DNA from: Acidobacteriota bacterium
GTDB taxonomy: Bacteria > Acidobacteriota > Thermoanaerobaculia > Multivoradales > JAGPDF01
DNA length: 64,000 nt
Assembly (NCBI GenBank): GCA_014584695.1
Contig: JACTMI010000008.1
Span: 15,333-79,332, forward strand
Direction of reading: 5' to 3'
Part shown: positions 189 to 63,060 of the stretch, piece after piece
How positions within the stretch are numbered: position 1 is the stretch's first letter
Layout of the letters: every line of letters begins with the position of its first letter
The notes under the pieces: model-generated
Database searches by the model: none
What the model was told of the DNA's origin: nothing
The model's input: the letters and a program-made list of their open reading frames with translations, nothing else
Translations under genes and position numbers: made by a program

Positions 189-2861
189 CTAACCGAGCGG
201 TTCGAAGCGCCCCTGGAAGAAGCGTAGCTCGGGCGGCTCGTAGGTGAAGCGCAGGCCGCGGATCGCGTCACGGCGCTGGTGGAGGCGGATGATCCCTTCC
301 GCCACGGCGCGCAGGTGGTCGTCCGAGTAGACGCGCCGCGGCAGCGTCAGCCGGACCAGCTCGAGCGCCGGCCGGTAGTTCACGCCCGCGTGGTCACGGC
401 CCTTCGAGACGTTGCCGCGCTCCATCGCCCGGACGCCGGTCTCGAGATAGAGCTCGCCCGCCAGCCGCTGCGCCGGGTACTCGTCCTGGTCGACGTGCGG
501 CAGGAAGCGCTTGGCGTCGAGGAAGACCGCGTGGCTGCCGGTCGGACGCACCACCGGCACGCCGGCCTCCTCCAGCCAGCCCGCCAGCCGCGCCGCCTGC
601 TCCACCCGCGAACGAATGTAGTGGTCGTCGACCATCTCGCGCATGCCCCGGGCCATCGCCGCGAGGTCGGCCGCGGGCAGGCCGCCATCGCGCACTCCGC
701 CTTCGTAGATGCGGATCTTGGCCTCCGCCTTGCGCGCCCAGTCGGCGTTGTTCTTGAAGGCGAGCAGACCGCCGATGTTGATCAGGTAGTCCTTCTTGCC
801 GGAGACGGTGCAGCCGTCGCCGTAGAGCATCATCTCGCGCAGGATCTCCTTGACCTTGGTGGCGTGGAAGCGCGAATCGTGCTTCTGGATCAGGTAGGCG
901 TTCTCGACCGCGCGCGTGGCGTCGAACATCACCGGAATGCCGTGAGAGCTGCAATAGGCGTAGACCTCGCGCAAGTTGTCCATCGACACCGGCTGCCCGC
1001 CCGCCATGTTGACCGAGTGCTCGAACGAGATGTAGGCGATCTGCGCCGCGCCGTGCTCGCTGACCAGGGCATCGAGCTTGGCGAGGTCGATGTTGCCCTT
1101 CCAGGGGAAATCCGAGGCGGGATCGTGGGCCTGGTCGACGATGACATCGACGAACACGCCGCCCGCCATCTCCTGGTGCACCTTGGTGGTGGTGAAGTAC
1201 ATGTTGCCTGGGACCAGCTGGCCGGGGCGGATCATCACCTCCGACAGGATCTGCTCGGCGGCGCGCCCCTGGTGAGTTGGCAGCACGTGCTCGTAGCCGT
1301 AGCAGTCGCGCACCGCGGCGGCGAGCTCGAGAAAGGCGTCGGTGGTCCCCGGGGTCGGCAGCGCGGCGTCGTAGGCGGCCCATTGGGTGGTCGACATCGC
1401 CGTGGTGCCGGAATCCGTCAGCAGATCGATCGTCACGTCGGCCGAGCGCAGCAGGAAGGTATTCCAGCCCGCCTCGCGAATGGCGCGCGCGCGCTGCTCC
1501 CGCGTCGTGCGGGCGATCGGCTCGAGGGTGTGCACGACGTAGGGGTCGCAGTCGAAGGCGAAGGCGTCGAGATCGGCGAAGAAGGAACGGAAGCGGAGCT
1601 GGTCGTGCCACTCGCCGTTGGCCTCGACTTCGAGTGGCGCCACCTTCTCGCGCTGGCGGTGGAGGGCGATCAGGGCGTCGGCCACCTGGTCGAGCTGGGT
1701 GTTGGTCATCGCCAGGCGCGGGATCTGGACCGGCAGCAGGGTGTCGCGACCGACCAGGCCCTGCGCCATCGCCCGCACGCCGGCGGTCTGGTAGAGCGCG
1801 CAGGCGAGGGCGTGCGCGGGGTGCTCACCGGCCTGGGGCAGGAACTCCGCGGCCTTGACGTAGGCCCCGTCGCAGCCGCGCTCGACCGGCACGCCCGCCG
1901 CGAGCAGGCGGGAGCTGAAGCGCTCGGTCTGGTGCATCACCCACTGCACCCCCGCCTCGTCGCACATCTCGGCCAGACCGCGCGCCAGCACCTCCATCGT
2001 GCGGCCGGCCATGCCGCCGTAGGTGTGCAGCCCCTCGAACACCACGACGTCGTTGATGAAGTGCTCGTGGTCGGCCGGGTTGTCGGTGGCGAGGAAACCG
2101 CCGGTATTGCAGCGCGGGTCCTGGGCGCCGTCCATCAGCACGACGTGGGCGGTCTTCGCGATCGCCCGCACCAGCTCGGCGATGGTGCGGTCGGCCATCC
2201 CCGGCTCGTGCCGCTGGACGAACCAGGCGTTTTCGATCACTCGCGAGACGTCGACGACCAGGCGCAACCCCGCGCGGTCCGCGAGCGCCCGCACGGCTCG
2301 CAGGTTGGCGAGGCTGAACGGATGCTGGCCGTCGGCGAACGCCTGGCAGCCGATGAACGGCGGCTTGCCCGTGCGGACGATCTCCTCGAGCCGGGCCAGG
2401 TCGAAGTTGCCGGTGAAGACGGGGGCGCCATGGTCCCGCGCGTCGAGGATCTCGATGCCGCGCGGCGCGTGGAGGTCGACGCGGCCGCGCGCGTTGGAGG
2501 GCAGGGACTGCCCCGCCTTGGCGAAGGCGCGCACCAGCAGCTTCACCGCCCCCAGCGAGTTGTGGGTCGGGCAGACGTAGGTGTGACCGAGCACGCGCGT
2601 GATCACCGCGTTCAGGGTCTCGAAGTTGCGCGCCCCGGCGTAGGCCTCGTCGCCGATCAGCTGGCCGGCGAGCTGCTCCTGGGTCATCGCGCTGGTGCCG
2701 TAGGAGACCATGTCGAAGGTCACCTGCGAGGGCGTCAGCTGGAAGACGTTGAAACGCGCCATCGAGAGGTTGCGCTTGCGTTCCTCGAGCGACGGGAACG
2801 CGATCGGACGCACGGTCTTGATCTTGTGCGGTTCGTGCAGCGGCAGAGCGAGGTTCGGCAT
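189..2861 (-). CDS. Tandem-domain beta-eliminating lyase (tyrosine phenol-lyase/tryptophanase family), 890 aa; N-terminal domain degenerate, C-terminal domain intact
   Basis: 890-aa ORF. The C-terminal half aligns end-to-end with TPL/TnaA (NTFLLRSADVTIDLLTDSGT, PTHQGRAAEQIL, GNMYFTTTKVHQE, PLP-lysine motif SGKKD, FLDAKRFLPH, RLTLPRRVY). The N-terminal half is a second copy with the lysine motif replaced by DGAQD and the substrate loop degenerate. RBS AAGGGGA lies upstream of the ATG at 2861. Confidence 0.85.
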   Translation of the reverse strand: MPNLALPLHEPHKIKTVRPIAFPSLEERKRNLSMARFNVFQLTPSQVTFDMVSYGTSAMTQEQLAGQLIGDEAYAGARNFETLNAVITRVLGHTYVCPTHNSLGAVKLLVRAFAKAGQSLPSNARGRVDLHAPRGIEILDARDHGAPVFTGNFDLARLEEIVRTGKPPFIGCQAFADGQHPFSLANLRAVRALADRAGLRLVVDVSRVIENAWFVQRHEPGMADRTIAELVRAIAKTAHVVLMDGAQDPRCNTGGFLATDNPADHEHFINDVVVFEGLHTYGGMAGRTMEVLARGLAEMCDEAGVQWVMHQTERFSSRLLAAGVPVERGCDGAYVKAAEFLPQAGEHPAHALACALYQTAGVRAMAQGLVGRDTLLPVQIPRLAMTNTQLDQVADALIALHRQREKVAPLEVEANGEWHDQLRFRSFFADLDAFAFDCDPYVVHTLEPIARTTREQRARAIREAGWNTFLLRSADVTIDLLTDSGTTAMSTTQWAAYDAALPTPGTTDAFLELAAAVRDCYGYEHVLPTHQGRAAEQILSEVMIRPGQLVPGNMYFTTTKVHQEMAGGVFVDVIVDQAHDPASDFPWKGNIDLAKLDALVSEHGAAQIAYISFEHSVNMAGGQPVSMDNLREVYAYCSSHGIPVMFDATRAVENAYLIQKHDSRFHATKVKEILREMMLYGDGCTVSGKKDYLINIGGLLAFKNNADWARKAEAKIRIYEGGVRDGGLPAADLAAMARGMREMVDDHYIRSRVEQAARLAGWLEEAGVPVVRPTGSHAVFLDAKRFLPHVDQDEYPAQRLAGELYLETGVRAMERGNVSKGRDHAGVNYRPALELVRLTLPRRVYSDDHLRAVAEGIIRLHQRRDAIRGLRFTYEPPELRFFQGRFEPLG

Positions 2862-3029
2862 GGCGGGAGCTCCCCTTCGCAGTCCCCGATAGTCTAGTAA
2901 GCCAGGACGCCGAAATTGAACCCCTCCTGCTAGGCTGTTCCCGGCATTCTCCTAAAACACTTAACTCTCACCAGCAAGAGACACAACGATCTATCGTCCA
3001 GATCCACGCCACGCCCCAGCACGCCCCCG

Positions 3030-3660
3030 CATGCCCCCGTACGCCACCTCCATGCCACTCCACGCCGCTCTGCTCCGCTCCTTCCTGACCAGACTGCGCG
3101 CCGGCGACACCGAGGTGCCTGCTGCAGCGAGAAGCAAAGGCCTTCTGTTGAAGGGGGTGGCCTCCGCCACGAACGCGGCGAGCTCGCAACGGCTGCTGCA
3201 GCGGCGACACTCCTCCCCTTCTATGGAGCTTCTGAGCGCTTCCTCCCCAGCGAGCGCTCAGCTCGGAGAGCGACCCTCCCGAGGTGCGGTGGCTCGAGCG
3301 CAGGTGGTCGAGCAGGCGAAAAGCAAAAGCGTGCTGTTGAAGGGGGTGACCTCCGTCACGAAGGCGGCGAGCTCGCAACGGCTGCCGCAACGGCGACACT
3401 CCTCCCCTTCTATGGAGCTTCTGAGCGCTTCCTCCCCAGCGAGCGCTCAGCCCGGAGAGCGACCCTCCCGAGGTGCGGTGGCTCGAGCGCAGGTGGTCGG
3501 GCAGGCGAAAAGCAAAAGCGTGCTGTTGAAGGGGGTGACCTCCGTCACGACGGCGGCGAGCTCGCAACGGCTGCTGCAGCGGCGACACTCCTCCCCTTCT
3601 ATGGAGCTTCTTCATCGCCCGGCCCACCGATCCGTCCGTGCCCGCAGCGGAGGGCTGTGA
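3030..3660. repeat. Tandem repeat locus 1: about 3.4 copies of a ~180-bp unit (same family as loci at 35994, 62526 and 50555; inverted orientation here)
   Basis: Motif ctatggagcttctgagcgcttcctcccc recurs at 3231/3411/3591 (period 180). The reverse complement matches the locus-3 unit core (agaagctccatagaagggg...gtcacccccttcaacag). A GA-rich tract (3690-3790) flanks it. Confidence 0.8.
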
Positions 3661-3790
3661 CTCACCGTTGGGCAAGAGATGAGCGATGAAGGAAAGTCAG
3701 GTGATCAGGAATGCGGGGGAGTTGGAGAGTAGGAAAGAAGGCAGGTAGGAAAGTGGGCAGGTAGGAAAGAAGGCAGGGAAGGGGGAGCTC

Positions 3791-6887: not shown

Positions 6888-9800
6888 GCCCCGACGAATC
6901 GACGCGGCCCGGTGTCGGGAGCGGCGCGGGTCTGCCCGAGCGGACGCGACGCGAAGCGCTCCGGCTGCGCCAGACCCGCAAACCGCTCGGCTTCGCCGGC
7001 AAGGTCGCCGCCGCCTTCCTCGACTCGAAGCTGACCCCTCTTCTGGTCGTCGCGTCCCTGCTGCTCGGTGCCTTTGCGGTGCTGGTGACGCCGCGCGAGG
7101 AGGAGCCGCAGATCAAAGTGCCGATGGTCGATGTCTTCGTGCAGCTGCCCGGCGCCACCGCCGAGGAGGTCGAGCGCCGGCTGGTGACACCGCTCGAAAA
7201 GGCGCTGTTCGAGATCCCCGGCGTCGAGCACGTCTACTCGACCTCGCAGCCGTCCGGCGGCATGATCATCGTGCGCTACCTGGTCGGCACCGACCCGGAC
7301 CGCGCCGCGCTCGCCGTCCACACCAAGCTGGCGGAGAAGGCCGCCGAGCTGCCTGCCGGCGCGCCGCCGCCGTTGGTCGTGCCGCGCGGCATCGACGACG
7401 TGCCGGCGCTCGCCTACACCCTCTGGTCGGAAACGGCGACGCCGCTCGAGCTCCGGCAGGTCGCGCAAGAGCTGCGCGCCGAGCTGGTCCGCCATCCGCG
7501 GGTCGCCCAGGTCCACGTCTTGGGCGGAGTGCGGCGCGCGATCACGGTCCGCTTCGACCGCGAGCGCCTCGCCGCGCACCAGGTCTCGATCCTGCAGGTC
7601 TACCAGGCGCTCGCCGGCCTCGATTGGAAGCTGCCCGCGGGCAGCTTCGCCGCCGGCGACGTCGACACCGAGGTCGAAGTCGGCGCCCTCTTCCGCTCCG
7701 CCGACGAGGTCGCCGCCGCGGTGGTGGGCGTCTACCCGGACGGCGCCGGCGGCCGCCGCCCGGTCTACCTGCGCGACGTCGCCACCGTCGCCGACGGTCC
7801 CGACGAGCCCGCCCAATACGTCTGGATGACCGCCGGCGCCGCCGGCGCGCACAAGCGGCTGCCGGCCGGCCTCGACACCCCGGCGGTGACGCTCGCCATC
7901 GCCAAGAAGCCCGGCACCAACGCCGTCGACCTGGTCGCGGAGCTCGACGCCCTGGTGGCGCGGCTGGCGGGCCCGCTGCTGCCGGCCAACGTCGAGATCA
8001 CCAAGACCCGCGACTACGGCTTCACCGCCGACGAGAAGTCGAGCGAGCTGATGAAGCACCTCGGGCTCGCCACCCTCTCCGTGGTCTTGCTCATGGCGCT
8101 CGCCCTCGGGCGCCGCGAGGCGGTGGTGGTGCTGGTCGCCGTGCCGGTGACCCTGGCGCTGACCCTGGCCTCTTCCTACCTGTTCGGCTACACGCTCAAC
8201 CGGGTGACGTTGTTCGCGCTGATCTTCGCCATCGGCATCCTGGTCGACGACGCCATCGTTGTGGTCGAGAACATTCACCGCCACTTCCAGCTCGGCTGGA
8301 CCCACCCTCGCCACGCCACCGTCTACGCCACCGACGAGGTCGGCAACCCGACGATTCTCGCCACCTTCACGGTGATCGGCGCCCTGCTGCCGCTCGCTTT
8401 CGTCTCCGGATTGATGGGCCCCTACATGCGGCCGATCCCGATCAACGCCTCGGCGGCGATGCTCTTCTCGCTGATCGTGGCCTTCGTCGTCTCGCCGTGG
8501 CTCACCTACCGGCTGTTCCGCAAGCACGCCGAGGCGATGGCCTCGGGACAGCACGACAAGCCCGGCGCGGCGACCGAGCAGGAGGGCCGGCTCGACCGGC
8601 TCTACCAGCGGATCTTCGCGCCGTTGCTCGCCTCGCGCCTCAAGCGCTGGGCGCTGCTCGCCGGAGTCGCGATCCTGCTGGTCGCGTCGGTGATGCTCTT
8701 CCCGTTCCGCTTCGCGGCGGTCAAGATGCTGCCGCACGACAACAAGAGCGAGCTCCAGGTGGTGATCGACATGCCCGAGGGCACGACCCTCGAGCGGACC
8801 GCCGCGGTCGCCCGCGAGCTGGCGATGACCGTGCGCTCCCTGCCCGAAGTCACCGACGTCGAGACCTACGTCGGCACGTCGGCGCCGTTCAGCTTCAATG
8901 GCCTCGTGCGTCACTACTTCCTGCGCTCGGGCCCGCTGGTGGCCGACCTGCAGGTCAACCTGCTGCCCAAGCACGATCGCAAGCGCGCCAGTCACGACTT
9001 CGCCAAGCAGCTGCGGCCGCTGCTGGCGCCGATCGCCGCGCGGCACGGCGCCAACGTCAAGGTCACCGAGGTGCCGCCGGGGCCGCCCGTGCTGTCGACG
9101 CTGGTGGCCGAGGTCTACGCGCCGACTCCGGCCGAGCGCCTCTCCCTCGCCGAGCAGGTCAAGGCGATCTTCGAGAGCACGCCCGGCGTCGTCGACGTCG
9201 ACTGGTACGTCGAGGGCCCCGGTCCCAAGCTCGAGCTCGAAGTCGACCGCGAGAAGGCGGCGCGCGCCGGCGTCTCACCAGAGGTCGTCGCCCGCACGCT
9301 CCGGGTGGCGCTCGCCGGCGCCGACGCCGCCCACCTCTCGGATCCGCGCGCGCGCGAGCCGGTGCCGGTCACGCTCCGTCTCGACCGCGCCCAGCGCTCG
9401 GGCGCGGCGGAGCTGCTGGCGGTCGACGTCCACGGCGCGGATGGCCGCCTGGTGCCGCTCTCCGAGCTGGTGCGGCCGGTCGAGACGGTCCGGGCGCCGT
9501 TCGTCTACCACAAGAACCTGCGGCCCGTGACCTACGTGCTGGGTGACGTCGCCCCCACCAGGCCGGGCAGCTCCGCCGAGTCACCCGTCTACGCGATCGC
9601 CGACATGGGGGAGCGCATCGGCGCGCTGCGTGACGCCGCCGGCCGGCCGCTCGAGGTCCTCTTCTCCGGCCGCCCGGCCGACGGCACGCGCTCGGCGCTG
9701 GTCTGGGACGGCGAGTGGCAGGTGACGCACGACGTCTTCCTGGACATGGGGATCGCCTTCGCCGCCGTGCTGGTGCTGATCTACCTGCTGGTCGTCGGCT

Positions 9801-10264
9801 GGTTCCGCTCTTTCGTGACGCCGATGATCATCATGGCGCCGATCCCGCTGACGCTGATCGGCATCGTGCCGGCGCACGCCCTGGGCGGGGTCTTCTTCAC
9901 CGCCACCTCGATGATCGGCTTCATCGCGCTCGCCGGCATCATCGTGCGCAACTCGATTCTGCTGGTCGACTTCGTCAACCTCGAGCTCGAGGCCGGAGCG
10001 CCACTCGCGGAAGCCGTGACCAAGGCGGCCGCCGTCCGCTTCCGGCCGATCGCGCTCACCGCCGCGGCGCTGGTCGTGGGCGGCGTCGTCATCCTCCTCG
10101 ACCCGATCTTCCAGGGGCTCGCGGTGGCGCTCATCTCGGGCGTCGTGGTCTCGACCGCGCTCACCCTGGTGGTCATCCCGCTCCTCTACTACATGTACGT
10201 CTCGACCGTCGGCGTCGCAGCCGTCGCGCCCGCCGCCGACCGAGAATCCGGAGGTGAAGCATGA
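6884..10264 (+). CDS. RND family efflux transporter permease (AcrB/CzcA-like), about 1126 aa
   Basis: 12-TM RND topology with two large periplasmic loops. Motifs FAIGILVDDAIVVVENIHRH and NSILLVDFVN. GTG at 6884 overlaps the upstream stop; in frame with ORF 5402..10264. Confidence 0.9.
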   Translation: MSPDESTRPGVGSGAGLPERTRREALRLRQTRKPLGFAGKVAAAFLDSKLTPLLVVASLLLGAFAVLVTPREEEPQIKVPMVDVFVQLPGATAEEVERRLVTPLEKALFEIPGVEHVYSTSQPSGGMIIVRYLVGTDPDRAALAVHTKLAEKAAELPAGAPPPLVVPRGIDDVPALAYTLWSETATPLELRQVAQELRAELVRHPRVAQVHVLGGVRRAITVRFDRERLAAHQVSILQVYQALAGLDWKLPAGSFAAGDVDTEVEVGALFRSADEVAAAVVGVYPDGAGGRRPVYLRDVATVADGPDEPAQYVWMTAGAAGAHKRLPAGLDTPAVTLAIAKKPGTNAVDLVAELDALVARLAGPLLPANVEITKTRDYGFTADEKSSELMKHLGLATLSVVLLMALALGRREAVVVLVAVPVTLALTLASSYLFGYTLNRVTLFALIFAIGILVDDAIVVVENIHRHFQLGWTHPRHATVYATDEVGNPTILATFTVIGALLPLAFVSGLMGPYMRPIPINASAAMLFSLIVAFVVSPWLTYRLFRKHAEAMASGQHDKPGAATEQEGRLDRLYQRIFAPLLASRLKRWALLAGVAILLVASVMLFPFRFAAVKMLPHDNKSELQVVIDMPEGTTLERTAAVARELAMTVRSLPEVTDVETYVGTSAPFSFNGLVRHYFLRSGPLVADLQVNLLPKHDRKRASHDFAKQLRPLLAPIAARHGANVKVTEVPPGPPVLSTLVAEVYAPTPAERLSLAEQVKAIFESTPGVVDVDWYVEGPGPKLELEVDREKAARAGVSPEVVARTLRVALAGADAAHLSDPRAREPVPVTLRLDRAQRSGAAELLAVDVHGADGRLVPLSELVRPVETVRAPFVYHKNLRPVTYVLGDVAPTRPGSSAESPVYAIADMGERIGALRDAAGRPLEVLFSGRPADGTRSALVWDGEWQVTHDVFLDMGIAFAAVLVLIYLLVVGWFRSFVTPMIIMAPIPLTLIGIVPAHALGGVFFTATSMIGFIALAGIIVRNSILLVDFVNLELEAGAPLAEAVTKAAAVRFRPIALTAAALVVGGVVILLDPIFQGLAVALISGVVVSTALTLVVIPLLYYMYVSTVGVAAVAPAADRESGGEA

Positions 10265-26436: not shown

Positions 26437-27815
26437 CCGGGTGGCGAAGTTTCAAGGTGGGTGAGAAGCGGCAGCCTCCTCGTCGTCCTCCATCGAGCCG
26501 CCAAGCAAGTGCCCAAGCAAGTGCCAGCCTCTTGGAACTTGCGTCGCGCCTCGAGGGCAGGAACTCTGGTCGGGGCCGAGCACAGGTGCGCTTGTTCCGC
26601 TACTTGCCCGCTGGCAGTCCTGCCCAGGCACCGGGCAGTGATGGGTGGGTCAGGCTACCTAGCTCCGAGTGCCCCGATCTCGCCCCGCAGGGGACGCGGC
26701 TCCTCCGGAGTCACGCCTGTGCTCACACCCGGCTCGCAAGGCTCGGCGCCGAGCGGCGCAGCGGGCCCACCACCGGGAGCTAGCTAGCCGCTCTCGCCGC
26801 CCACGCAGGCGACGAAGCGGGCCGAAGGCGGAAAGGAGCCTGGCGGGAAGAGCGACAAGGCCTCGCTCGCCCCCGCGACGCCGAGACGGAATCGCGCGGA
26901 TGCTCGCCGGAAGGCCTCGACGAAACCTTGGTAGCGCAGTCGTATCGCTCGACGCACGGCCTGCGTTGCCGCATGCACCAACGGGGCGGGCCGTTTCCTT
27001 GGCATGTCCTGCTCCAAGTGTGGATCCTGGCGAAGAAGGCGGGCCGACCCCAAGGGCTCACGGCCTGTGACCCGGATTCGCGCCGCCGTTTCGGCTTCGA
27101 CCAGAGCGACGAGGTCGGCACACCGGGCGCGATGACGCTCGGGGGGGAGATCCCGCCAGCAAGGAAGGTGGACAAGGTCGAAGGACTCGACCGCGGTGAC
27201 CTCCTCCCGACCGGACGCTCGACCACGCACCGCCAGCCGGTACTCCTTTGTCCGATCGAACCAGGTGCCGCGGACCGGACTGCCGTCCAGGAGCGCTCGG
27301 GTCGAGCTCGCTCCCGGCCAGTCTGTCGGTCGGCGAACGAGATTCTCCTTGCAGCCTTGCCGCAGAATATAGAGCAGCCGCTCGACCTGGGCAGCCTCTT
27401 CGTCGGACACGAGAACTGCTTGATACCTGCGGCCCCAGAACTTGTCCTTCCAGCGCACTTGACGGCCTACCTCGCGCGCGAGGTTGGAGTTCATGTAGTT
27501 CATGAAGGCAGCCAGCCGTTCCGCACTCGGCACCGTCACCAGCAGGTGAAAGTGATTCGAAAGGAAGCAGAAGGCATGGATCTGGACGGGATACAGGCGC
27601 ACCGCGCGGGCGAGCACGCCGCGAACGAGATCGGCGATCCGAGGCGTCGGCCTGAGCAGGCACCGCCCTTGGACCGTGCGGCATGTCACCTCGACGAGCG
27701 AATCAGGAGGTATGAAGCGGATTCGGCGACCCATGTCTCCTGAGACGAGATTCCTTCCCGTCGGCTTGCGTCAAGTGGCTGGCACCTGCAGTCCGACTTC
27801 GGGGGGGTGGCGGGG
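26437..27815. mobile_element. IS200/IS605-family-like insertion carrying a single HuH (Y1) transposase gene
   Basis: A lower-GC segment between two unrelated housekeeping genes. The transposase ORF is 26784-27734. The left arm contains a direct repeat ccaagcaagtgc x2 (about 26505-26530) and a small hairpin ctgccc-aggcacc-gggcag (about 26620-26640). Confidence 0.55.
26784..27734 (-). CDS. HuH Y1 tyrosine transposase (IS200-like / REP-associated tyrosine transposase-like, COG1943), 316 aa with a long C-terminal extension
   Basis: HuH motif LSNHFHLLV and catalytic Tyr region KFWGRRYQAVLV, typical of the Y1_Tnp (PF01797) family. Confidence 0.75.
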   Translation of the reverse strand: MGRRIRFIPPDSLVEVTCRTVQGRCLLRPTPRIADLVRGVLARAVRLYPVQIHAFCFLSNHFHLLVTVPSAERLAAFMNYMNSNLAREVGRQVRWKDKFWGRRYQAVLVSDEEAAQVERLLYILRQGCKENLVRRPTDWPGASSTRALLDGSPVRGTWFDRTKEYRLAVRGRASGREEVTAVESFDLVHLPCWRDLPPERHRARCADLVALVEAETAARIRVTGREPLGSARLLRQDPHLEQDMPRKRPAPLVHAATQAVRRAIRLRYQGFVEAFRRASARFRLGVAGASEALSLFPPGSFPPSARFVACVGGESG

Positions 27816-35902: not shown

Positions 35903-35993
35903 CCGCAACCCCAGCGGCCGCCGACGGGGATCCCGTCCGCTCGAATCAAGCAGAGAGCGAAACAGAAGAAGAAGAAAATGGAAAAGAAAGCAA

Positions 35994-36366
35994 AGCTCCA
36001 GTTAAGGGCAGGTGTAGGGAGCGATCTCGTTGAGGCGAAGCGGTTTGCCGTCCGTGAAGAAGAGAAGAGCAACAGCTCCAGTTAAGGGTAGGTGAATGGA
36101 ACGTCCTCGCTGAGCCGAAGCGGTCTGCCGTCCGTGAAGAAGAGAAAAGCAACAGCTCCAGTTAAGGGTAGGTGAGTGGAGCGTCCTCGCTGCGGCGAGG
36201 CGGATTGCCGTCCGAGAAGAAGAGAAGAGGCAACAGCTCCAGTTAAGGGTAGGTGAGTGGAGCGTCCTCGCTGCGGCGAGGCGGATTGCCGTCCGTGAAG
36301 AAGAGAAAAGGCAACAGCTCCAGTTAAGGGTAGGTGAGTGGAGCGTCCTCGCTGCGGCGAGGCGTG
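35994..36366. repeat. Tandem repeat locus 2: about 4.6 copies of an 80-81-bp unit (agctccagttaagggtaggtgagtggagcgtcctcgctgcggcgaggcggattgccgtccgtgaagaagagaaaaggcaac)
   Basis: Units start at 35994, 36074, 36154, 36235 and 36316. It shares the AGCTCCA(T/G)T(G/A)AAGGG core and the GAAGAAGAGAAAAG motif with loci 1 and 3. A period that is not a multiple of 3 argues against coding. Confidence 0.8.
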
Positions 36367-36446: not shown

Positions 36447-36720
36447 CCCCCCTCCCCCTCCCCCTCCCCCTCCCCCTCCCCTTCCCCTTCCCGTTCCCCT
36501 TCGCCTGCCCCTTCTCATTCCCCATTCCGCTCCTTTTCCCACCTTTCACCGCCCCCGCTACCGCGCAGCTCAACTCAGTCAACAACGCCCCCCCTCCCAC
36601 CCCTTCTATGGAAGCCTTTTCTTTTCTCTTCTTTTCTCTTCTCCGCTCTTCTCTTCTCTTCTCTTCTCTGCGCCTCTCCTGACTCTTCTTCCACCTCCTT
36701 CCCTTACTCTCTTCTCGCTC
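36447..36720. repeat. Polypyrimidine tract of about 275 nt beginning with (CCCCCT)5(CCCCTT)2; a G-rich quadruplex-capable complement on the minus strand
   Basis: The plus strand is >90% C/T from 36447 to ~36720. It also contains an inverted partial copy of the repeat core (cccttctatggaagc = reverse complement of gcttccatagaaggg) at about 36598-36680. Confidence 0.85.
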
Positions 36721-50372: not shown

Positions 50373-50418
50373 GGGGACAGGCACGTAATAAGTATTGCGT
50401 GCCTGTCCCCGTTTCTCG
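50373..50418 (+). terminator. Rho-independent terminator hairpin, potentially bidirectional
   Basis: ggggacaggcacg-taataagtattg-cgtgcctgtcccc (13-bp perfect stem) followed by gtttctcg. On the opposite strand it is preceded by attttgtg (U-rich). It lies 56 nt after the ACAD stop. Confidence 0.7.
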
Positions 50419-50554
50419 CGGAGGAAGAACCGCGAAGCGCCGGCCTCGCTGGTGCGGCTCCACTCGAGGACGCACCTGTCGCCCTCGCCTCGCCGGACAC
50501 GAGCCCGGCTTTTCCATTCTCTGGAGCTTCTTGGAGGCCGCGAGGCCGAGGCAG

Positions 50555-50600
50555 CTTCGTTTCCGCGAGGAGAAGCTCCATCGAAGGAAAGACCACTACA
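50555..50600. repeat. Solitary copy of the repeat-family core (cgaggagaagctccatcgaaggaaag) with an upstream inverted partner (ctggagcttcttgg)
   Basis: Matches the AGAAGCTCCAT(T/C)GAAGG core of loci 1-3. It lies in a ~490-bp non-coding gap between convergent genes. Confidence 0.5.
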
Positions 50601-50909
50601 GAGCATCCGCAGCGGATCACGGGAGCCCTGGCCTTGGCCGCGACCTCGGCCGCGACCGAGGCTGCGCTCGACCTCCGTTGCCACGCCGAGGCCGCCGCGC
50701 AGCGCCGCGCCACCTCTGCCACGGTGGTCACGATCTGGGCTGTTCTCTTCTAGGGCGCTTTTCTGACGTCGCCACCCCGATGCAGTTCAGCACCTGCGCG
50801 GTGACACCCCCTGGACGGAAGCGATCTCCATCCAGGGGGGAACGGCGGCCTCGCGGGCGCGGGTGTGGGGTGAGGGTGGTCGGCCGCTCTCTCGACGCGC
50901 GCGCCCGGT

Positions 50910-62374: not shown

Positions 62375-62525
62375 GCGACCACTCCTCCGTGTCTCCGCTC
62401 CAGGCACACACTCTCCGGGAGTGAACCCTCGGAGCGAACCGAGAGGAGAGGACGATGGCGATCCGGATCGTGCAGCTCGGCAGTCCGCGGGCCGCGGGCC
62501 CGGCTGGTACGGCCAGGTGCGATGA

Positions 62526-63060
62526 CGGCTGCGACCGAAGAGAAAAGCTCCATTGAAGGGAGCAGTAGTCGCCGCCGATTCGAGCGTTGCGAGTTCGCCA
62601 CCGCCGTTCCTGTAGTCACCCCCCTTCAACAGAACGCCTTTCACTTCGCCTCGCCCCCATCCGGAGCTCCGTCGGAGCCGCAGATGCAACAGTTGCGACC
62701 AGGTGCGACAGCCGCGGCGACCGAAGCGAGAAGCTCCATTGAAGGGAACGTGTGTCGCCGTCGAGCCGCGCTTTGCGAGCTCGCCACCACCGTGCCTGGG
62801 GTCACCCCCATCAACAGAACGCTTTTCTCTACGACTCGCCCCCATCCAGAGCTCCGTCGGAGCCGCAAGCGCGGCTGGTGCGACCAAGTGCATCGTCCGC
62901 GGCGACGGAAGCGAAAAGCTCCATTGAAGGGAGCGGTAGTCGCCGCCGGTTCGAGCGTTGCGAGCTCGCCACCGCCATTTCAGGAGTCACCCCCTTCAAC
63001 AGAACGCTTTTCTCTGTGCCTCGTCCTCCACGCACGCTCCCGTCGGTCCAGAGGCGCCGC
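62526..63060. repeat. Tandem repeat locus 3: about 3 copies of a ~180-bp unit, each a MITE-like module with ~20-nt imperfect terminal inverted repeats (AGAAAAGCtccaTTGAAGGG ... CCCTTCAAcagaacGCTTTTCT)
   Basis: Unit starts (gaccgaag(a/c)gagaagctccattgaaggg) at about 62531, 62718 and 62895. Periods are 187 and 177, not multiples of 3. Confidence 0.8.

Follow-up and report, generated by a model that had tools for sequence, protein, structure and literature searches.

Gene context and structure of the repeat array

The spacer between the divergent genes of a beta-eliminating lyase and an Lrp protein carries one (locus 1) of four repeat loci in the window, by which we mean the whole 64-kb stretch of DNA that was analysed. 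According to Tandem Repeats Finder (TRF) the array at positions 3127-3611 has a period of 189 bp and comprises 2.6 copies with 95% matches. The initial annotation had described it as a 180-bp unit present in about 3.4 copies; the tandem array is real, but its period is 189 bp and it consists of three modules. On the minus strand three 103-nt modules are separated by two 86-nt spacers between positions 3131 and 3611:

3509-3611, minus strand: module 1, with an A-type core AGAAGCTCCATAGAAGGG at 3594-3611 and a B-type inverted end CACCCCCTTCAACAG...GCTTTTGCTTTTC at 3509-3537
3423-3508, minus strand: spacer between modules 1 and 2, 86 nt, not related to the locus 4 spacers, missing from single-module Logan contigs
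3320-3422, minus strand: module 2, with the core at 3405-3422 and the B end at 3320-3348, 97% identical to module 1
3234-3319, minus strand: second spacer, 86 nt, 97.7% identical to the first spacer
3131-3233, minus strand: module 3, with the core at 3216-3233 and the B end at 3131-3159, 91-92% identical to modules 1 and 2

In minus-strand orientation the modules start with AGAAGCTCCATAGAAGGG and finish with CACCCCCTTCAACAG(C/A)A(C/G)GC(T/C)TTTGCTT(T/C)TC. Module 3 contains a small GTGAC..GTCAC palindrome with a paired A>G / T>C change, and a homopurine/homopyrimidine tract was detected in the neighbourhood of the array at 3729-3777. Six short-read contigs of near-identical strains hold one module instead of three in the lyase-lrp spacer, a state which may be the product of assembly collapse.

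The core motif of the repeat family

The core of the family is a sharply bounded sequence of 18-19 nt, gAAAAGCTCCA(T/G)(A/T)(G/T)AAGGG, which also occurs with the variant end AAAAGCGTTCTGTTGAAGGG. In the window the core AGAAGCTCCATWGAAGGG was matched eight times with at most two mismatches while 0.00 matches were expected from shuffled sequences, and the looser pattern GCTCCANWNAAGG was matched 14 times while 1.1 matches were expected. A chance origin of the core repeats is excluded. A profile HMM built only from copies located outside the window recovered exactly four intergenic loci in the window, with 15 matches to A-type cores and nothing else, and the 14-mers which occur most often in the window all derive from the repeat family.

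In an alignment of 53 instances on the core the information content amounts to 1-2 bits inside the core and to less than 0.4 bits outside, where the conserved features are limited to a G just upstream and to purine richness. The core (gAAAAGCTCCAKWKAAGGG) is not self-complementary and carries neither a GTAG nor a CGTC tag, and a short GCTCC..GGAGC stem overlaps it in some copies only. Apart from one chance match in cysS the core is almost absent from coding DNA. Reading the sequence by eye, we found that neither the sigma-54 GG-N10-GC spacing nor the IHF consensus fits the core.

The other three loci of the window

Locus 4 lies between an acyltransferase gene and a DUF1801-type gene which have the same direction. 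TRF assigned to it an array on the plus strand at 62501-63015 with a period of 185 bp, 2.8 copies and 79% matches, in which the following modules were recognised:

62543-62646, plus strand: module 1, with the core at 62543-62560 and the B end at about 62618-62646
62729-62831, plus strand: module 2, with the core at 62729-62746
62914-63016, plus strand: module 3, with the core at 62914-62931

The units of locus 4 are only about 80-90% alike, and an independent short-read contig (L062) reproduces the whole 822-bp spacer without a single difference. The array of locus 1 had been regarded as the reverse complement of the approximately 180-bp units at 62526-63060. An alignment of the six units confirms this for the module of about 103 nt, since loci 1 and 4 are homologous over the first ~104 columns with 68-80% identity, but not for the rest of the unit, as the remaining ~85 columns share about 40% identity and are thus unrelated. 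Since the module is common to both loci and the spacers are unrelated, the two arrays must have been built independently from the module and different adjacent DNA.

Locus 2 is located between the genes of a VWA protein and a DUF2911-TPR protein, which have the same direction, and locus 3 between the convergent genes of an acyl-CoA dehydrogenase and an MMPL protein:

35987-36364, plus strand: locus 2 array, 80/81-bp unit in 4.7 copies, each unit with a purine tract, the core variant (A/C)AGCTCCAGTTAAGGG and a GC-rich hairpin
36596-36615, minus strand: locus 2 inverted partner core, AAGGCTTCCATAGAAGGGG on the minus strand, facing the array 230 nt downstream, with pyrimidine tracts at 36619-36678 next to it
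50514-50531, minus strand: locus 3 degenerate core AGAAGCTCCAGAGAATGG
50571-50762, plus strand: locus 3 element of 192 nt, core AGAAGCTCCATCGAAGGA at 50571-50588 facing a weak or degenerate inverted core at 50745-50762 (minus strand)

The 80-bp units of locus 2, previously placed at 35994-36366, do share the core as had been claimed, via the variant GCTCCAGTTAAGG, which is all that the array has in common with the family. In contrast, the copy at about 50560 is not solitary as had been assumed: locus 3 holds two cores facing away from each other and a degenerate third one at 50745-50762 on the minus strand.

A short-read contig with 100% identical flanks at locus 2 lacks exactly two units which are identical to their neighbour, leaving 2.7 of the 4.7 units, and other contigs break within the locus 2 spacer. 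As missing units and contig breaks are what assembly collapse produces, we distrust differences in unit number between near-identical strains.

The intergenic position of the loci, their lower GC content and their homopurine or homopyrimidine flanks, all of them part of the initial annotation, were confirmed by the gene context, by a GC content of 0.63-0.69 at the four loci compared with 0.70-0.78 elsewhere, and by the location of the tracts, which around locus 2 extend over ~35950-35990, 36447-36528 and 36619-36678.

Element anatomy and folding

The usual layout of the family consists of two facing cores, as found in 11 pairs in loci of metagenome-assembled genomes (MAGs) with spans of 94-294 nt and in one metagenome contig (L074). 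The spacing of the facing cores is highly variable (76-294 bp), and the GC-rich interior of 58-260 nt between the facing ends shows little conservation among copies. The two ends of an element mostly belong to different variants, such as a left ATAG combined with a right AGAG, resulting in a fixed mismatch upon pairing. Outside the cores runs of the hexamers AAAAGC/GCTTTT or purine/pyrimidine tracts are often present. Tandem amplification of arms or doublets recurs in the family, with a 74-bp unit in four copies (L023), a 111-117-bp unit in three copies (L039) and the arrays of loci 1, 2 and 4 in the window.

The cores form the closing helix in all nine elements for which a fold was displayed. 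Of 13 elements located elsewhere than in the window, ten have folds which are much more stable than those of dinucleotide shuffles (z -3.7 to -5.8). The short forms of about 95 nt are near-perfect hairpins. The folds of the six window modules, on the other hand, are not superior to those of shuffled sequences (z 0 to -2.6), and hence it is the motif and not the hairpin which is retained in this genome. Their ends pair in 92.9% of the cells, and their minimum-free-energy structures disagree in the interior. No pair of columns with a compensatory change was found in the window modules, the conserved terminal helices being invariant, and therefore covariation provides no evidence in either direction.

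Target-site duplications were not detected at 14 elements, the longest flanking direct match being no longer than 3 bp with a mean of 1.8 bp as compared with 2.5 bp at random positions.

Coding and RNA-based interpretations

Two open reading frames are embedded in the array of locus 1, one of 209 aa on the plus strand (3031-3660) and one of 235 aa on the minus strand (2968-3675), and together with the period of 189 bp, a multiple of 3, they might be taken to indicate that the array encodes a repetitive protein. However, their GC3 values of 0.75 (209 aa) and 0.68 (235 aa) fall short of the 0.88-0.96 of the neighbouring genes, neither of them has a Pfam match, and no homologue of the minus-strand frame was found among 5.8 billion proteins. 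No coding signature was detected in any frame across the arrays of loci 1 and 4, the sister array has a period of 185/186 bp with indels and is not consistently a multiple of 3, and the single-module contigs of relatives lack a long open reading frame. There is thus practically no chance that the array is a protein-coding gene, in agreement with the initial annotation, which had considered a coding role unlikely and had attributed the open frames to a period divisible by three; this explanation holds with 189 = 63 x 3. A small open reading frame following the Shine-Dalgarno-like AAGGGG was also considered and rejected since start codons and frames are inconsistent between copies.

Tandem clusters of small RNA genes exist in other bacteria, and repeated modules of about 100 nt with conserved blocks in untranslated DNA would be compatible with each unit representing a small RNA or cis-regulatory RNA gene and the arrays representing clusters of such genes. 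A structured small RNA family had indeed been among the candidates proposed earlier, together with an Rfam/Infernal scan and a folding and covariation analysis as means to verify it. Yet in the window and in five family-rich loci of other genomes Rfam 15 yielded no match at gathering score and no relevant one when E<=1 or E<=10 was allowed, the window modules fold like shuffles, the sole conserved helices are invariant and show no covariation, the interior is not conserved between family members, and no sigma-70-like promoter was detected in either array. We therefore consider a small RNA function very unlikely.

Resemblance to the attC sites of integrons was examined as well. On either strand the ends of the elements read 5'-..TTGAAGGG ... 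CCCTTCAA..-3', which is the opposite order to attC (5'-RYYYAAC ... GTTRRRY-3'), and no integrase is encoded near the locus.

Distribution of the family and comparison of orthologous sites

A scan with ARAAGCTCCATWGAAGGG covering one genome per species returned 55 stretches. About 30 of them belong to MAGs with a GC content of 0.68-0.75 labelled Acidobacteriota or Thermoanaerobaculia, with about 19 originating from a single MAG (CAWDOT01), and the low-GC stretches represent scattered chance or coding matches. The species of the window itself was without a match in this one-genome-per-species scan. The ~30 acidobacterial MAG loci are nearly all intergenic, the window variants ATAG, AGAG, AGTT and ATTG recur in them when three mismatches are allowed, and the CCCTTCAACAG-type end is present there, too. 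Searches with blastn and tblastn of the window against the MAG loci gave no matches because the sampled genes differ. The Lrp protein of the window shares 83-86% identity with proteins labelled 'MAG: Thermoanaerobaculia bacterium', which marks the window itself as Thermoanaerobaculia-like, and the exact Lrp and acyltransferase sequences of the window occur in more than 50 assemblies. A scan of metagenomes for doublets yielded only L074 as a clear member of the family and, in addition, the related sequences L072 and L073, both of them perfect palindromes. Five matches in viral contigs were all located in contigs of low GC content (0.35-0.58) and are probably due to chance.

Based on crude gene calls the loci are located between gene pairs of same, convergent and divergent direction at a ratio of about 13:6:6, without any bias. 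At 12 loci the first core follows a same-strand stop codon at a distance of 39-93 nt (2 nt in one case). The genes adjoining the elements are ordinary housekeeping genes, among which neither a recurrent transposase nor an enrichment of transposases was detected.

The comparison of orthologous intergenic regions in relatives, which had been suggested in order to detect presence/absence polymorphism, was informative at the lyase-lrp spacer. In a more distant relative (L079/L080; Lrp 87% identical) the spacer holds a single element, whose two ends are the same and equally oriented and whose interior of about 150 nt is different. In other relatives (L076-L078; Lrp 83-86% identical) the spacer of 113-134 bp is empty and no core occurs within 14.6-20 kb. 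The orthologous site is thus polymorphic, with three modules in the window, one element in L079/L080 and none in L076-L078, and from these three states it follows that the element was gained or lost there and that the abundance of the family is lineage-specific. At locus 4 synteny is lost in the neighbourhood of the orthologues, which share about 70% protein identity, and these are therefore uninformative on the persistence of the array.

Taken together, the repeats constitute an intergenic, non-coding and lineage-restricted family dispersed in Thermoanaerobaculia-type Acidobacteriota. Its members are arranged as doublets, as solo copies or in ordered tandem clusters, and their presence at an orthologous site is polymorphic.

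Search for a mobilising enzyme

The open reading frame at 26784-27734 (minus strand) encodes a protein of 316 aa with a Y1_Tnp domain and is the only HuH/Y1 gene in the window. Its best NCBIfam match is the REP-associated tyrosine transposase NF047646, with a score of 57 bits compared with a cut-off of 80. The gene is bracketed by an inverted repeat of its own, GCAAGTGCCAGCC / GGCTGGCACCTGC, at 26517-26534 / 27772-27789, which occurs nowhere else in the window. A profile search of the window detected no cores, not even weak ones, near the gene, and its flanks have only chance 11-mers in common with the rest of the window. Homologues of the protein are missing from the ~0.6 Mb of loci analysed and from the vicinity of all other copies of the repeat. 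The mobilisation of the repeats in trans by this transposase, as previously proposed, is hence not supported, given its own unrelated inverted repeat and the lack of cores at its flanks. Furthermore, no RAYT gene flanked by repeats of the family was found in the 64-kb window or in the ~0.6 Mb of loci, and neither the window nor about 35 core-bearing loci of 8 kb revealed an autonomous insertion sequence bounded by these ends.

Origin and possible function of the repeats

We interpret the repeats as a REPIN/BIME-like non-coding family and locus 1 as a local tandem cluster of three inverted-repeat doublet modules, and assign to this reading a probability of roughly 0.6, because the same set of features has been described for the REPINs and their ordered clusters in Pseudomonas fluorescens (PMC3116915). 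In strain SBW25 the REPINs are inverted doublets forming hairpins, accompanied by decayed singlets and by ordered tandem clusters which include the flanks and show a spacing peak at 184 bp (PMC3116915). The MITE/REP-like element postulated in the initial annotation is thus retained in the REP/REPIN sense, in view of facing ends, doublet hairpins, solo copies, clusters and presence/absence polymorphism, but not in the MITE sense. The elements do possess the terminal inverted repeats of a MITE, in the form of imperfect inverted ends of 18-20 nt which are usually different variants. Nevertheless, the family is no classical MITE since no target-site duplications and, in the window and the ~35 core-bearing loci, no parent insertion sequence were seen. 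Nor is it a member of the REP/RAYT system in the strict sense, because the core is non-palindromic and carries neither of the tags GTAG and CGTC, and a flanking RAYT gene was not found in the window or in the ~0.6 Mb of loci.

As the two ends are able to pair, the elements can adopt a hairpin structure in the single-stranded state, be it DNA or RNA. Copies may have been spread, in analogy to the REPIN-RAYT system, by a trans-acting enzyme recognising the end motif without generating target-site duplications. Clusters such as those at loci 1 and 4 would have arisen later by unequal recombination or replication slippage duplicating a doublet together with adjacent DNA, a presumed origin which matches the 'ordered REPIN clusters' of P. 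fluorescens. Any consequences for the host are probably neutral or incidental. The layout of A-tract, stem and U-tract could serve to terminate or stabilise transcripts.

Several observations stand against the REPIN-like reading. No enzyme is linked to the family, the core is non-palindromic and untagged, and the window modules fold like shuffles. The preservation of the ends next to a different interior at the orthologous site could equally mean a host function. Moreover, the loci show no gene-orientation bias (~13:6:6), and locus 1 is a single module in six short-read contigs.

The main rival explanation, unlikely in our view and with its nucleoid-protein variant already among the candidates of the initial annotation, is that the core serves as the binding site of a DNA-binding protein of the host. 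This might be a dedicated regulator or a nucleoid-associated or architectural factor, for which the arrays would provide multi-site platforms with the hairpin being secondary. Such a role would account for the sharp bounds of the motif between unconserved flanks, for its occurrence in several species-level MAGs, for the absence of an orientation or context bias of the loci, for the preservation of both ends at the orthologous lyase-lrp spacer despite the different interior, and for the window modules keeping the motif without folding better than shuffles. However, syntenic close relatives have neither the element nor any core within 14.6-20 kb, which would be odd for a general factor, the spacing of the facing cores is as variable as 76-294 bp, left and right ends differ systematically in their variant, the solo and degenerate copies look decayed, and no candidate protein was found. 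That the elements act in RNA as bidirectional intrinsic terminators or 3'-end stabilisers and have spread because they are useful seems rather improbable. Consistent with it are the distances of 39-93 nt (once 2 nt) between a same-strand stop codon and the first core at 12 loci, the outer edges AAAAGC...GCUUUU(C), to which further GCUUUU or runs of pyrimidines are often attached, the very stable hairpins of the elements outside the window, and the complement of the locus 4 core, which scores as a small terminator-like hairpin with a T run. Yet about a quarter of the loci, including locus 1, separate divergent genes and would have no use for a terminator, the U-tract does not exceed 4 nt, the window modules are not unusually stable, and the counts of the promoter and terminator scans are not above the shuffle expectation. 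For intrinsic terminators, defined by a GC-rich stem-loop with a directly adjoining U-run of at least 5 of 8, the scan gave 2 sites per array region versus 0.6-0.8 expected, and the U-tract behind the inverted core reads GCUUUU(C).

As a tentative proposal, to which we give little weight, the core might be the recognition sequence of a trans-acting factor of the Thermoanaerobaculia. This could be a non-canonical mobilising enzyme, for example the long Y1 transposase of 316 aa without repeat flanks or a wholly different enzyme, or a host protein, with the elements being domesticated as regulatory or terminator modules. If the former was true, it would represent a REPIN-like system with a new recognition logic, based on a linear tag and heterotypic ends and operating without a palindromic REP and without target-site duplications. 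The preserved ends and the replaced interior at the lyase-lrp spacer point in the direction of domestication by a host protein.

Dispersed hairpin repeats (REP, REPIN, BIME and MITE-like elements) have been investigated in detail in Proteobacteria and in a small number of other groups. Full-text literature searches retrieved no description of the present family or of dispersed hairpin repeats in Acidobacteriota, and a literature search for the motif strings gave only unrelated eukaryotic matches. We regard the family as a new but ordinary example of a known repeat class. In practical terms, the repeats create long spurious open reading frames in a genome of 71% GC and break or collapse short-read assemblies, and the 18-nt core lends itself as a lineage marker of Thermoanaerobaculia-type genomes. 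If the cognate enzyme or binding protein was found, the REPIN-RAYT idea would be extended to a new phylum with a non-palindromic tag.

Comparison with known repeat systems

The DNA uptake sequences of Neisseria (DUS) and Haemophilus (USS) are frequent inside genes, and inverted pairs of them, which are often located downstream of genes, act as terminators. The present family resembles them in its short, conserved and oriented motif and in the frequent inverted pairs downstream of genes, whereas its core is almost absent from coding DNA and its density is far lower. Comparable small intergenic modular elements with inverted ends are the Correia/NEMIS elements and the pneumococcal BOX elements. 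With the BrickBuilt MITE of Porphyromonas gingivalis (PMC4596501) the family shares the small size, the non-coding intergenic nature, the inverted ends and the modular structure with variable tandem units, internal ones in the case of BrickBuilt, as well as the restriction to a species or lineage and a location tens to hundreds of nucleotides away from the neighbouring genes. It differs from this type of MITE in the lack of target-site duplications, in that no parent insertion sequence with the same ends was seen in the loci covered, and in the repetition of whole doublets with their flanks or of arms (74-189 bp) instead of a short internal minisatellite.

The differences from the REPINs concern the motif in particular, which is 18-19 nt long, non-palindromic and free of a GTAG or CGTC tag, while REPs are imperfect palindromes of 20-40 nt which are usually tagged. 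In addition, the present family has unlike left and right ends and interiors of up to 260 nt, no repeat-flanked RAYT gene was found, with the one Y1 gene of the window having unrelated flanks, and the host belongs to the Acidobacteriota and not to the Proteobacteria. In common with the REPINs of P. fluorescens SBW25 and the REP/BIME elements of E. coli the family has a short extragenic motif which is mostly arranged in inverted, hairpin-forming doublets around a less conserved spacer. It furthermore shares with the REPINs the solo copies which look like decayed remnants, the absence of target-site duplications and the persistence across related species. Finally, the clusters repeat the doublet together with its flanks in both cases, and the spacing peak of 184 bp in REPIN clusters (PMC3116915) comes close to the periods of 185-189 bp observed here.

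Transposase-like gene and its flanking repeats

The initial annotation had suggested the following gene as a possible mobiliser of the dispersed REPIN/BIME-like repeat family:
26784-27734, minus strand: Y1/HuH transposase-like gene, 316 aa, with a Y1_Tnp domain
26501-26525: 12-bp x 2 tandem repeat CCAAGCAAGTGC in the flank of this gene

According to a search against NCBIfam the top match of its product was the model for the REP-associated tyrosine transposase (RAYT), with a score under the cut-off, and the C-terminal extension of approximately 170 aa had no match. In its two flanks (26501-26534 and 27772-27789) the gene has the arms of an 18-nt inverted repeat (GCAAGTGCCAGCCTCTTG / CAAGTGGCTGGCACCTGC). 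These arms are 89% complementary, and no other copy of the repeat was detected within the 64-kb window.

Surroundings of the family loci

Long homopyrimidine and homopurine microsatellites adjoin the family loci in the window, and the cores (the end motif of the family) in other genomes are flanked by similar hexamer runs (AAAAGC/GCTTTT):
3729-3777: 16-bp GTAGGAAAGAAGGCAG x 3, immediately upstream of lrp
about 35950-35990: GA-rich tract
36447-36528: (CCCCTY)n, about 13 copies
36619-36678: (TTCTC)n, about 10 copies

Furthermore, a short ORF runs into family locus 4:
62456-62557, plus strand: 33-codon ORF MAIRIVQLGSPRAAG... with a strong Shine-Dalgarno sequence (GGAGAGGA) upstream

It enters the first module of the locus, terminates at a TGA within the core and had no match in Pfam. 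This ORF could represent the stump of a gene that was cut off on arrival of the element.

One of the two genes next to the lyase-lrp spacer, which harbours locus 1, is:
189-2861, minus strand: beta-eliminating lyase, 890 aa, with a Pfam domain on residues 479-854 only

Its N-terminal half (478 aa) had no match in Pfam, and a length of 889-890 aa is kept in the relatives L056, L057 and L076-L078. In the MAG GCA_027493395.1 (L075 8580-10000) the called lyase is just 460 aa long, and a stretch of 1.4 kb that is free of Ns but has no gene call separates it from lrp. A nearly identical contig from JGI, L076, encodes the full 889-aa lyase, and the short call in the MAG probably reflects a frameshift or faulty assembly.

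Core match in a coding sequence

In the CAWDOT01 MAG, one of the exact matches to the core (L055 5641-5658, minus strand) falls within a gene that was recognised by eye from its sequence as probably encoding cysteinyl-tRNA synthetase, and it is read there as ..EKLHRRA... This match is a coding occurrence by chance, so that the exact-pattern count per genome slightly overstates the family.

Palindromic hairpins

Near-perfect palindromes of 77-79 nt were detected in two metagenome contigs of 64-65% GC, and a perfect hairpin near locus 3:
L072 2538-2616: palindrome
L073 235-311: palindrome
window 50373-50410: hairpin with a 13-bp stem, GGGGACAGGCACG...CGTGCCTGTCCCC, and A/T-rich edges

Both edges of the two palindromes are identical (GCTCCATTGAAGGG / CCCTTCAATGGAG), and an ATG begins 5 nt downstream. 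They may belong to a hairpin family of another lineage that is related to the present one and has homotypic ends.

The hairpin in the window is positioned 56 nt past the stop codon of an acyl-CoA dehydrogenase. Its arm GGGGACAKGC also occurs in loci of Acidobacteriota MAGs, namely at six sites in L087, where it forms an approximately 85-bp tandem triplet at about 9720-9930, at two in L026 and at one in L042. Hairpins of this type look like a second REP-like family that is classically palindromic.
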